Sequence record: PQ999132.1
DNA from: Escherichia phage BUCT789
DNA: 40,771 nucleotides
Strand: one strand, 5' to 3'
Of this stretch, positions 3,348 through 7,984 are shown one piece after another. Position numbers and translations under genes: made by a program. The notes below the pieces were generated by a model that was not told the DNA's origin, searched no databases, and worked only from the letters and a program-made list of their open reading frames with translations. Positions within the stretch are counted from its first letter, which is position 1. Every line of letters begins with the position of its first letter.

Positions 3348-3748
3348 GTATACATTGCGAATAATGGGAAATCAAACATAATCGCACCTATTGACATTAT
3401 GAAAATCTTCGTTTAAGGTGCTTCTGTATCTTAGTTACTTTGATTCTTGTTCACCTTGTAAAACCCGCCGAAAACGAGCGCCCAACGCGAAGTGTTAGGC
3501 GGCAGTTTACTGAACATTCGAATTATCGTAACTTTCCTTCCTAAGTATCTCCGGTTGCCCTGGGCAAGCTCTATTCTCATCGACGGCATATCTCTTAAGT
3601 ATCTGATTTTCTTAATGTGCCGTAGATTCGCAACCGTAAAAATGTAACGATTAGTGGGCAGGCTTAAGGCCTGCCCTTTAGTTACCAAGTAATAAGAATA
3701 AAGGCACAACCCTCACTAAAGAACCACAACGGCAACGTAACTTTTCTC

Positions 3749-3777
3749 TTGCACACCCCAACATAATAGGATACTAT
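3749..3777 (+). promoter_or_regulatory. promoter, TTGCAC-N17-TACTAT with conserved spacer ATAATAGG
   Basis: TTGCAC 3749-3754, TACTAT 3772-3777; conserved leader TTATCGAAACGAG then RBS GAGGAG; near-identical copies at 5188-5216 and 22864-22892. Confidence 0.55.
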
Positions 3778-3811
3778 TCACTTATCGAAACGAGACAGAG
3801 GAGTGAGGGTT

Positions 3812-4003
3812 ATGTTTAAACGTGGTCAGTTGGCTAAAACGAAGCGAGGCGAACAGTACGTAATAGTGTTGCAGGACGAGAACGAGTATGACGAGGATAA
3901 GCTGGTTGACGTATGGGGTCTGGTAAGAAAGAAACCCGGGTTCGCCTTACGCGATAATCTGAAACTCATCGGCAACAATTTTAAATTCAAAGGGGTGAAG
4001 TGA
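3812..4003 (+). CDS. hypothetical protein
   Basis: ATG 3812 with GAGGAG RBS; track ORF 3803..4003 uses an upstream GTG. Confidence 0.6.
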   Translation: MFKRGQLAKTKRGEQYVIVLQDENEYDEDKLVDVWGLVRKKPGFALRDNLKLIGNNFKFKGVK

Positions 4004-5883: not shown

Positions 5884-6083
5884 CCAGCATCCTCTTTATC
5901 TGGGTACTGTCCGCAGGCCAGATGCAACTGGCGGCAGCAGAAACGTTTTATTCGATGGAGGCGTGCCAGTCAGCGGCACGCGCCGCAGAGAACGCGCACT
6001 TCCTGTTTCAGGGCGACAAGCCCAACGATTCAGAGGTACGCGCTATCTGCTCACCTAAGCGACTTGGTAAACAGGAGAGATAA
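5880..6083 (+). CDS. small protein with N-terminal hydrophobic segment
   Basis: ATG 5880 overlaps upstream stop (ATGA); N-terminus MTSILFIWVLSAG. Confidence 0.5.
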   Translation: MTSILFIWVLSAGQMQLAAAETFYSMEACQSAARAAENAHFLFQGDKPNDSEVRAICSPKRLGKQER

Positions 6084-6376
6084 TGTCTCTTGCAACTGAC
6101 ATCCTGAAACGAAGCGGCCTTGCGCCGCTGTCACCGAGAGCGAAGACACGTATACACAAGCGTCGCCGTAACGTGCTGTACCCAGAGATACAAGAACGGC
6201 GTAAAGCTATCCGCGCCTGTGGATTCCAGAACGGAAAGGCCGTGAATCTCGGTGAGTTTAAAACACAGGAACGCGCAGCTATCGCTAATCGGCTATTTAA
6301 TTACTGGAAATCGCTGGGGTACGATGATATTCCGACGAAACCGCAGAGACGGCAATACATCTGGAGACACAAATAA
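6083..6376 (+). CDS. basic hypothetical protein (97 aa)
   Basis: ORF directly after the previous stop; K/R-rich. Confidence 0.55.
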   Translation: MSLATDILKRSGLAPLSPRAKTRIHKRRRNVLYPEIQERRKAIRACGFQNGKAVNLGEFKTQERAAIANRLFNYWKSLGYDDIPTKPQRRQYIWRHK

Positions 6377-6385
6377 ACCGTTATT

Positions 6386-6446
6386 AGGATAATTCCTACC
6401 CGTGGTATCCTCCAGTTACTGCATACTTAATACGCACCTGGAGGAT
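6386..6446 (+). promoter_or_regulatory. alternative RNA hairpins over the holin ribosome-binding site
   Basis: Perfect 9-bp inverted repeat atcctccag (6407-6415) / ctggaggat (6438-6446), the latter containing the holin SD; competing aggata (6386-6391) / tatcct (6406-6411) pairing. Confidence 0.45.
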
Positions 6447-6451
6447 TCATC

Positions 6452-6760
6452 TTGGATAAATTTACTGAAACAGTGACGGGCTGGCTTCTCGCTGCCGCAC
6501 TCGCCGGAGGGGTCATCGGACTACGACAACATAAGTCCGTTATTTCTGGCCCTATCGACGGCTTCTGCTTCATCGCTACTGGTTTCGCCTGCGCCGTATT
6601 TGGCGCCCCTCTTGCAGCTCAATGGTTCGGTATCACGGGCGACCGTGAAATCGCTGGCCTGGGCTTTATCATCGCTATTCTCTGGATGCCTATTTATTCC
6701 CGTCTCTCCGGTATTGTTGCCGGAGAATACATCTCACGTCGAGGAGGCCCGGATGAATGA
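6452..6760 (+). CDS. holin (class I-like, three predicted TMDs)
   Basis: TTG start 7 nt after GGAGGA; three hydrophobic segments; directly upstream of the endolysin. Confidence 0.65.
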   Translation: MDKFTETVTGWLLAAALAGGVIGLRQHKSVISGPIDGFCFIATGFACAVFGAPLAAQWFGITGDREIAGLGFIIAILWMPIYSRLSGIVAGEYISRRGGPDE

Positions 6761-7025
6761 GTTATTCTGGTTCGGCGGTATGCTGGCAATAGGGGGTACA
6801 TCGCTGTTTAATGTGTATCACCCCAGCGTTGACGATGGGCTATTTGGTCGTGTGCTCTATATCCTGACAGCTATCGTCTGCGCCGCCGGGTGTATCCACC
6901 TGTTACAGGGCAGCATGTCGCCCACGTTGCCTGAGACATTAATCACATTAGTTGCACTGCGCCAGATTCGCCAGGCGTGGCTGTCATATGGAGGACATAA
7001 GCGTGTCTCGAAACATTTCAGATAA
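6753..7025 (+). CDS. small membrane protein (second holin or antiholin candidate)
   Basis: ATG 6753 overlaps the holin stop (ATGAATGA); two hydrophobic segments; part of track ORF 6600..7025. Confidence 0.5.
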   Translation: MNELFWFGGMLAIGGTSLFNVYHPSVDDGLFGRVLYILTAIVCAAGCIHLLQGSMSPTLPETLITLVALRQIRQAWLSYGGHKRVSKHFR

Positions 7026-7488
7026 TGGATTGCATTTTACCGCTGCGTTCGAGGGATTCCGCGGAACTGCGTATCGTGCTACGCCTAACGAGAAGTACCT
7101 TACTATAGGCTACGGGCACTATGGGCCTGACGTAACCCCGGGTAAGACCATCACACCGGGACAGGGCTTGCTGTTACTGAATCGCGATATGGCTAAGGCT
7201 GTAGCTGCTGTTGACGCAGCAGCACACCATTCACTGACACAGGCACAGTTCGATGCAGTGTGCGACCTGGTATATAACGCAGGTGCTGGTGTGATTGGGG
7301 TTACTACCGGAACCGGTAAGGCGCTACATAGCGGTGATATTTCGACGCTGCGGGCTAAACTGGCGCTGTTCATCAACCAGAACGGCAAACCGTTACTCGG
7401 CCTGCGTCGCCGTACCGCAGGCCGCCTGGCGCTGTTCGATGGCAAGCCGTGGCAAGAGGCTGAGGCTATCGGGAGGGCTGTTAAATGA
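6988..7488 (+). CDS. endolysin, GH24 lysozyme-like muramidase
   Basis: FEGFRGTAYR...LTIGYGH matches the T4/lambda lysozyme catalytic region; no N-terminal signal-anchor. Confidence 0.8.
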   Translation: MEDISVSRNISDNGLHFTAAFEGFRGTAYRATPNEKYLTIGYGHYGPDVTPGKTITPGQGLLLLNRDMAKAVAAVDAAAHHSLTQAQFDAVCDLVYNAGAGVIGVTTGTGKALHSGDISTLRAKLALFINQNGKPLLGLRRRTAGRLALFDGKPWQEAEAIGRAVK

Positions 7489-7615
7489 TGGACGAATATG
7501 AAGGCGTTTAGTAAACTTATCCCTACGCTGTTTGTGCTTGCATACTAAGCCCCGGTAAACCCGAAGCAGCAGCCCAAGCGGTGGAGACTGCGTAGGGTTC
7601 AGGGGCTTATGACCG

Positions 7616-7645
7616 AAACCCGGACCGCGAATCCGGGTTTTATTT
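7616..7645 (+). terminator. rho-independent terminator
   Basis: cccgg/ccggg stem followed by ttttatttt. Confidence 0.6.
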
Positions 7646-7651
7646 TACCAA

Positions 7652-7680
7652 TTGACACCTAAGACTAATCCGACGATACT
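7652..7680 (+). promoter_or_regulatory. sigma70-like promoter, TTGACA-N17-GATACT
   Basis: TTGACA 7652-7657, 17-nt spacer, GATACT 7675-7680; only about 45 nt upstream of a terminator. Confidence 0.4.
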
Positions 7681-7686
7681 TAAATC

Positions 7687-7750
7687 ACCTCCTGTTCCAT
7701 CCCTCTGCTCTCCAGTTTTATCCCGGCCCTGACCCAGCCGGGATTTTTTT
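7687..7750 (+). ncRNA. candidate small RNA (about 60-65 nt) between promoter and terminator
   Basis: No ORF; contains AUCACCUCCU resembling the 16S rRNA 3' end, then terminator hairpin. Confidence 0.3.
7720..7750 (+). terminator. rho-independent terminator
   Basis: atcccggc/gccgggat stem followed by a 7-T tract. Confidence 0.65.
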
Positions 7751-7772
7751 ATCTGTTTTCCACAATGACTAG

Positions 7773-7801
7773 TTGACTATTACCATCGACCCTATTATAT
7801 T
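7773..7801 (+). promoter_or_regulatory. sigma70-like promoter, TTGACT-N17-TATATT
   Basis: TTGACT 7773-7778, exact 17-nt spacer, TATATT 7796-7801; drives the 7835-9589 small-gene block. Confidence 0.55.
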
Positions 7802-7834: not shown

Positions 7835-7984
7835 ATGAAAATCACAGATATCGAAGCATTCAAAGACGCACAACTGATGGCACGTATCGCCGTTAGTAAC
7901 CTTAGTAGCAGTATCCCCGCTGACGCGTTCTGGTTCGCAGCGATGCAGACCCTGAAAGCAGCTTATGCAGGAGAGAAGAAATGA
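7835..7984 (+). CDS. small hypothetical protein (49 aa)
   Basis: ATG 7835 after GGAG; ends GEKK with GGAGAGAAGAAATGA junction into the next gene. Confidence 0.45.
   Translation: MKITDIEAFKDAQLMARIAVSNLSSSIPADAFWFAAMQTLKAAYAGEKK

Follow-up and report, generated by a model that had tools for sequence, protein, structure and literature searches.

The 40,771-nucleotide stretch of DNA analyzed here (the window) comes from Escherichia phage BUCT789 (sequence record PQ999132.1). At the head of its lysis cassette, positions 6407-6446 encode an RNA hairpin that masks the Shine-Dalgarno (SD) sequence of a holin-like gene starting at 6452. The phage is a Kagunavirus (Guernseyvirinae): positions 6000-7500 are 96% identical to Escherichia phage Henuyfy11N and match about 120 Kagunavirus genomes at 80-95%. 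Hairpin and gene lie on the + strand, which carries all neighbouring genes from about 4300 to 32700. The gene (holin-like gene 1, 6452-6760, 102 amino acids, TTG start) probably encodes a holin, as judged from the match of residues 1-93 to the phrog_2359 'holin' profile (E 2.9e-29); a Pfam search of the protein returned no match. Jerseyvirus holins have been assigned to the same two PHROGs as the two holin-like genes of the window (PMC9409062).

The TTG start named in the original prediction is borne out by the reading frame. It is the first and only possible start downstream of the in-frame TAA at 6428-6430 and sits where the Dhillonvirus homologue has an ATG, M-D-K opening both proteins. In the record of phage Snoke, the CPT annotators likewise give the counterpart of this gene a TTG start, and they label it holin/antiholin with three transmembrane domains. 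Across the homologous holins, the start codon is TTG in Kagunavirus, in the divergent Kagunavirus-like sequence L059 and in Serratia phage Scapp, GTG in Jerseyvirus, and ATG in Dhillonvirus and the FSL SP-038-like phages. The TTG holin is unannotated in the record of the closest relative, Henuyfy11N (L041, PV696613.1), where a 376-nt gap (3622-3999) stands in its place. The class I and class II labels given to the two holin genes are inconsistent among GenBank records.

The hairpin pairs a 5' arm, the anti-SD sequence ATCCTCCAG (6407-6415), with a 3' arm, CTGGAGGAT (6438-6446), across a 22-nt loop (6416-6437). The two arms are 100% complementary over 9 bp. The original prediction had placed them at these positions, with the SD GGAGGA (6440-6445) inside the 3' arm, and all of its coordinates are right. 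A pyrimidine-rich spacer of 5 nt, TCATC (6447-6451), separates the end of the stem from the start codon, and GGAGGA lies 6 nt from the TTG at 6452. An inverted repeat of this length is unremarkable by count: the window holds seven perfect 9-bp inverted repeats with loops of 3-30 nt, compared with 4.55 ± 2.9 expected from Markov simulations. The case for the hairpin therefore rests on other evidence.

Predicted folding of the RNA supports the proposal that the holin SD is sequestered in a stable hairpin. The 99 nt at 6377-6475 have a minimum free energy (MFE) of -25.5 kcal/mol (z -3.25), and none of 200 dinucleotide shuffles folded as well; for the 49-nt core, z is -4.71. The nine stem pairs form with probabilities of 0.86-1.0. 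The holin SD has the lowest accessibility among the 92 open reading frame (ORF) starts of the window, a crude set (0.04, compared with a median of 0.49). In long RNAs, the SD region is unpaired with a probability of 0.07; this value rises to 0.41-0.44 in RNAs that start at 6416-6420. It rises no further because, without the 5' arm, the SD is free to pair with CTTCTC (6485-6490), a segment of the holin coding sequence that may act as a second, weaker brake. No terminators were called between the same-strand upstream ORFs and the hairpin. A search of Rfam 15 gave no match at gathering score in the whole window and, within 6250-6600, only a chance-level hit (E 3.5).

Within Kagunavirus, the hairpin arms are under strong purifying selection. 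Across 41 unique sequences (40 IMG/VR loci and phage Snoke), nucleotide diversity is 0.005 in the 5' arm, 0.000 in the 3' arm, 0.022 in the loop and 0.01-0.05 over 6392-6451. The corresponding value for the holin coding sequence is 0.156, with 0.35 at codon position 3 and 0.034 at codon position 2. As the loop is less diverse than codon position 2, its sequence is itself constrained. No stem-breaking variants occur in the 41 sequences or in 35 metagenomic loci. The metagenomes were searched with a pattern consisting of the 3' arm and start region only, so that the 5' arm lay outside the query; it is intact in 35 of the 35 relatives in which it is readable. These relatives contributed almost no further variation. 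The 99-nt element is also present in 120 phage records, 111 of them at at least 95% identity, a count of matches to the whole element rather than of individually read stems. The conserved non-coding block is retained where the upstream gene differs, with an HslV-like protease in place of a 97-residue ORF.

Substitutions within the element leave the stem in place. A6414G (L039) yields a G·U pair. L059, with a holin that is 68% identical and retains the TTG start, has U·G and G·U pairs through C6413T combined with A6414G. T6416G (L025) and the combination of C6435T and C6437A (L029) add stem pairs. Since G·U pairs are valid in the sense-strand RNA only, these changes argue against a DNA-level palindrome.

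Hairpins of differing sequence occupy the same place in six other lineages with homologous holins, in each case with the SD in the 3' arm. Dhillonvirus phages (HK578, SO-1, LM40P1), with holins 45-50% identical to that of the window, carry the arms AGUCCCAGUGAG and CUUACUGGGACU, followed by U6 and an ATG start. The arms are AAUCUCCGAAGGU and ACUUUCGGAGAUU in Jerseyvirus, with a U-run and GTG, and CUCCGUAUGG and CUAUACGGAG in the FSL SP-038/SenTO17-like phages, with ATG. Serratia Guernseyvirinae (Otaku, Smarc3) have GCCUCGG and CUGAGGC ahead of an ATG. In Scappvirus, the holin is 27% identical to the FSL SP-038-like holin and starts with TTG. The hairpins of Kagunavirus, Dhillonvirus, Jerseyvirus and the FSL SP-038-like phages have energies of -14 to -22 kcal/mol (z -3.0 to -7.7); those of Scapp and the Serratia Guernseyvirinae are shorter SD-pairing stems, seen only in folds of the whole region. 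The distance of 5 nt from stem end to start codon recurs in L059, Dhillonvirus and Serratia Guernseyvirinae.

Between lineages, compensatory and G·U changes have produced two to five kinds of standard pair at nine positions of the stem. For example, C-G is replaced by G-C at -8, C-G, U-A and A-U alternate at -9, and G·U, U-A and G-C occur within the FSL SP-038-like group. Two points limit this evidence. The pairs were tabulated from MFE folds indexed on the T at -7, which by construction contain canonical pairs only; what gives the table weight is that 7-17 predicted pairs persist while the sequence turns over. In addition, MAFFT misaligns the 3' arms between lineages, so that counting of structure pairs was restricted to Kagunavirus, where 10 of the 13 pairs are invariant and the observed covariation score is equalled or exceeded in 415 of 500 shuffles. 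Variation in this genus is too low for the test, and the evidence for covariation therefore rests on the comparisons between genera.

A covariance model built from Kagunavirus sequences alone recovered only Kagunavirus and L059 at default filters. With the filters off, it placed its best hit exactly on the element that precedes the holin gene, in Jerseyvirus (E 0.02-0.04) as well as in HK578 (E 0.15), though weakly, and the FSL SP-038-like phages and Scapp were not reached. The hairpin is absent at distant holin homologues of unrelated phage types (Pantoea Nafs113, Salmonella PCSE1, Pectobacterium Wc4-1), which makes it a feature of this phage group and not of the holin family. The protein alignment of distant holin homologues (A1) was too divergent for a locus search, and viral-contig searches with P0019 and P0020 returned no matches.

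The 6407-6446 hairpin is a real, selected sense-strand RNA structure. Pairing of the SD is the only feature common to all lineages, and the shared property of these hairpins is the masking of the holin SD. Taken alone, the masking is a reading that we hold with high confidence. The earlier proposal that sequestration of the ribosome-binding site limits holin translation is supported by the fold, by the low accessibility of the SD and by the conservation of the hairpin.

A putative promoter of the lysis cassette overlaps the same structure. An extended -10-like motif, TGGTATCCT (TGgTATCCT, 6403-6411, + strand), is formed by a TG at 6403-6404 and the hexamer TATCCT at 6406-6411. The general form TGnTA(T/A)nnT abuts or overlaps the anti-SD arm in five lineages, reading TGaTATAGT in Dhillonvirus, TGtTAATCT in Jerseyvirus, and TGaTAATCT or TGcTAACCT in the FSL SP-038-like phages. 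G-14, T-12, A-11 and T-7 are invariant in all seven lineages and T-15 is present in five (C in Scapp, A in Serratia Guernseyvirinae); position -13 takes all four bases, and positions -10 to -8 are variable. On sequence grounds, this pattern of conservation is the information pattern of an extended -10 element. The TG and T-12 (T6406) lie outside the 9-bp stem, and pairing thus does not explain their conservation.

The predicted transcription start, 7 nt after the hexamer, is A6418 in the window. In no lineage does it lie more than 3 nt from the end of the 5' arm, and the predicted leaders, 24-34 nt long, lack the anti-SD. Truncation at this point is predicted to open the SD, from 0.07 to the 0.41-0.44 given above in the window and from 0.10 to 0.75 in HK578. 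A second candidate, GAGACA-18-GATAAT (6364-6393), was called by pattern scan and rejected as a conserved promoter: relatives have GATAAA, GATACC or GATGAT in place of its hexamer, and its -35 lies inside a gene that is replaced in other phages.

On balance, we lean towards a promoter-in-hairpin design similar to that of phage T4 gene e. In the predicted fold, the hairpin buries the holin SD in any transcript that carries the 5' arm, namely RNA from the same-strand upstream genes. Together with the weak TTG start, it would keep a lethal membrane protein unmade from read-through RNA. The holin's own promoter would be the extended -10-like motif, and polymerase starting near A6418 would produce an mRNA with a 34-nt leader, no anti-SD and a much more open ribosome site. 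Expression of the lysis genes would then be set by a weak dedicated promoter and be insulated from upstream transcription. The logic would be that of T4 gene e, transferred to a holin and built on a host promoter of the sigma-70 type. In the sister genera, read-through RNA would be silenced and probably terminated, while the holin's own mRNA would escape. An internal promoter would also explain why the loop, as the 5' end of the mRNA, is conserved like coding sequence, and why a non-coding block of about 25-50 nt travels with the lysis module even as the upstream gene changes. In Scapp, the hexamer and the SD hairpin are kept despite a separate annotated terminator 60 nt upstream.

This design has precedent. 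In T4, the promoter of the lysozyme gene e lies within the 5' strand of the inhibitory structure (PMC3014915, reviewing McPheeters et al. 1986), and the same design is found at soc, 49 and I-TevI (PMC3014915). As in the window, the SD and/or start codon of a lysis gene is sequestered in a hairpin on long upstream transcripts. In the window, the candidate -10-like hexamer lies against or across the anti-SD arm, with its predicted start where that arm ends. The two systems differ in that the regulated gene of the window is a holin rather than an endolysin, and in that the candidate promoter is of the host sigma-70 extended -10 type rather than the T4 gp55 late type (TATAAATA). The hairpin also looks like an intrinsic terminator in sister genera of the window phage, unlike at gene e. 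There is no sequence homology between the two, and promoter use and any temporal switching are, for the window, predictions. The principle being known from T4, the finding would widen its range by further phage groups, by holins and by a promoter of host type, without adding a new mechanism.

T4 gene e is a closer precedent than the lambda S sdi structure, after which the original prediction had modelled a translational timer for lysis. A stem-loop just 5' of the holin gene occludes the SD and affects the amount of holin in both lambda and the window. In lambda, sdi controls access to the Met1 SD and partitions initiation between the Met1 and Met3 starts, giving antiholin and holin (bioRxiv 10.1101/2025.05.14.654169). 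This dual start sets the ratio of S107 antiholin to S105 holin, whereas the window gene has a single start and no Met-Lys-Met-type motif; the next in-frame candidate, a GTG at codon 8, has no SD and is not conserved in homologues. The analogy fails because nothing is partitioned where there is no dual start. Lambda, moreover, has no promoter inside the stem, in contrast to the candidate arrangement of the window.

Intrinsic terminators overlapping the promoter that follows them form a third class of comparison; according to its title and abstract, a 2026 preprint describes promoter-terminator coupling as widespread in bacteria. The elements of Dhillonvirus, Jerseyvirus and L059 resemble such terminators, having GC-containing stems, loops of 6-9 nt and a T-rich tail that would be a U-tract in the RNA. 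The pattern scan called the hairpin terminator-like in HK578 (12 pairs, loop of 6, T-run) and L059 (13 pairs, loop of 7), and the 13-bp stem and U6AUU tail of Jerseyvirus also resemble a terminator. In these three lineages, the hairpin probably terminates read-through transcription as well. The window differs, with a 9-bp stem (5 G-C pairs), a 22-nt loop and no terminator call by the pattern scan; its tail, TTCATCTT, has 5 T in 8, giving UUCAUCUU in the RNA, an interrupted tract with 5 U in 8. With the loop grown to 22 nt in the lineage of the window, termination is doubtful and SD masking is the activity retained. The FSL SP-038-like copies have no U-tract and keep the SD hairpin. In view of these copies, the separate terminator of Scapp and the uncalled window copy, termination looks like an addition made in some lineages, with SD masking as the common function.

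Several observations weigh against an internal promoter. Five of the nine motif bases overlap the anti-SD arm, so that their conservation is confounded with that of the stem and only the TG and T-12 are independent. The T of the TG is missing from Scapp (CGcTAATCT) and from the Serratia phages (AGtTATACT), in which G-14 and the hexamer are retained. With 31 occurrences in the window and 36.8 expected, the degenerate motif is common by chance; TATCCT agrees with the consensus hexamer at 4 of 6 positions (3 of 6 in Jerseyvirus), and the -35 is poor. Even truncation of the window RNA opens the SD to only about 0.4. Late timing would not follow from a sigma-70 promoter by itself, which provides insulation, and a literature search on these genera found no transcriptome or start-site paper. 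The weakness of the candidate -10 and its confounding with the stem would fit a static throttle, in which there is no internal promoter and low, constant translation through breathing of the hairpin and the TTG start leads to slow accumulation of holin up to the triggering threshold, which sets lysis time. SD masking and a non-ATG start are seen directly, weak starts recur (TTG in Kagunavirus, L059 and Scapp, GTG in Jerseyvirus), and lower holin translation delays lysis in lambda (bioRxiv 10.1101/2025.05.14.654169). However, a throttle of this kind leaves unexplained the invariance of G-14 and T-12, outside the stem, in seven lineages and of the TG in five, as well as the conservation of the 22-nt loop, on par with coding second positions. 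It would also yield little holin mRNA in Dhillonvirus and Jerseyvirus, where what looks like a full terminator stands 5-7 nt before the start, unless transcription restarts. We regard it as rather unlikely.

The terminator-like features would suit a hairpin that is chiefly an intrinsic terminator or attenuator closing the upstream operon, which polymerase passes late with the help of a Q-, N- or AlpA-like antiterminator of the phage; TGnTAnnnT would then be a sigma-dependent pause or loading site and not a promoter. This is in line with the calls in HK578 and L059, the 13-bp stem and U6 of Jerseyvirus and the T-rich tail of the window. AlpA is presented as a known lysis-operon antiterminator in PMC7969949, and in a related record a small ORF nearby carries the label 'alpa family'. 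We nevertheless consider it improbable, given the long loop and missing terminator call in the window and the missing U-tract in the FSL SP-038-like phages. Ten small ORFs flanking the cassette, including the 'alpa family' ORF, gave no AlpA- or Q-like Pfam match, the ORF adjoining the hairpin is also without a Pfam match, and the immediate upstream gene differs between relatives. More improbable still is the two-state RNA switch of the original prediction. There, the pairing of TATCCT (6406-6411) with AGGATA (6386-6391) would release the SD and, as with sdi, serve as a timer for lysis. The two hexamers are indeed complementary over 6 bp and, being transcribed first, could pair transiently during transcription, but they form no stable alternative fold. 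The ensemble probability of the competing hairpin is about 0, and forcing it moves the energy from -25.5 to -13.2 kcal/mol, a cost of 12.3 kcal/mol; alone it reaches -5.4 kcal/mol, compared with -14.2 kcal/mol for the SD hairpin. The pairing is lost without compensation through G6387A, which about half of the relatives carry, through A6386C and in the L059 sequence, and in the common variant the competing hairpin does not fold at all. A pairing that is both negligible and broken by natural variants provides no evidence for a switch built from those arms, and the dual-start motif is lacking too. The unremarkable number of such repeats in the window (about 4.6 expected, 7 seen) would speak for a chance inverted repeat of no function. 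The comparative data effectively refute this reading: amid a diverse background the arms hardly vary, none of the 92 starts has a less accessible SD, the substitutions seen keep the structure, and six other lineages have hairpins of other sequence at the same place.

The promoter-in-hairpin design may apply beyond the window. We put forward tentatively, at slightly less than even confidence, that a widespread 'self-insulating' lysis promoter occurs in siphophages of Guernseyvirinae, Dhillonvirus and Scappvirus, of which hundreds are sequenced, with the -10 and discriminator encoding the anti-SD arm. With the same reserve, we suggest that in some genera this promoter region also encodes the first arm of a terminator. 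Only RNA started there would then be translated or escape termination, and lysis timing would be independent of strong upstream transcription. The rate of holin synthesis sets lysis time, a central fitness trait, and phages of Kagunavirus, Jerseyvirus and Dhillonvirus are widely isolated for therapy and biocontrol. No other stretch of the lysis region is as conserved as the hairpin element, which nevertheless goes unannotated. A promoter inside the hairpin would provide a simple, testable rule for keeping a lethal gene silent on read-through RNA. It would also offer handles for engineering of lysis timing, with the TG and T-12 governing promoter strength and the arm governing masking.

The gene just 5' of the hairpin (6083-6392) is mosaic, being a 97-residue ORF (phrog_9632, unknown function) or an HslV-like protease in different Kagunaviruses (L004, L006 and L043 are among the examples). 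The switch point lies at about 6377-6392, directly 5' of the conserved non-coding block. Upstream of the hairpin is a near-palindrome, GGATAA(A/T)TCC (6387-6396), that is conserved in Kagunavirus, Jerseyvirus and the FSL SP-038-like phages and that in many relatives includes the stop codon of whichever gene lies upstream. Its distance to the hairpin differs (6 nt or about 30 nt), and in L102-L117 the holin start follows it at about 65-75 nt. The near-palindrome may mark a junction between modules or be a site bound by a protein.

Downstream of holin-like gene 1, the cassette continues with a second holin-like gene (6753-7025, + strand, 90 amino acids; phrog_2508 holin, E 1.9e-33). Its ATG (6753) lies within ATGAATGA, overlapping the stop codon of the first gene, and its own SD, GAGGAGG (6741-6747), is strong and accessible (0.43 unpaired). 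With one SD masked and the other accessible, the two membrane proteins probably differ widely in their rates of synthesis, unless their translation is coupled. The last gene of the cassette is the endolysin (6988-7488, + strand), which matches PF00959 Phage_lysozyme (E 3.8e-26) and the endolysin families phrog_33703 and phrog_7. A terminator-like hairpin, AAACCCGGA/TCCGGGTTT followed by TATTTT (7616-7648, + strand), can be read by eye downstream of the cassette and would end the lysis transcription unit; the pattern scan gave no terminator call for it.

A near-consensus promoter, TTGACA-17-GATACT (7652-7680), follows this hairpin. The stretch from about 7684 begins with ATCACCTCCT, an exact copy of the 16S rRNA 3' end that mimics the anti-SD. 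It leads into a second terminator-like hairpin, ATCCCGGC/GCCGGGAT with a T-run (7720-7750). No Rfam match was obtained in 7616-7801, and neither of its terminators was called by the pattern scan. A further promoter, TTGACT-17-TATATT (7773-7801), precedes the ORF at 7835. As a whole, 7616-7801 resembles a very small unit running from promoter to terminator, which would be a small RNA or else a leader similar to lambda PR'-6S.

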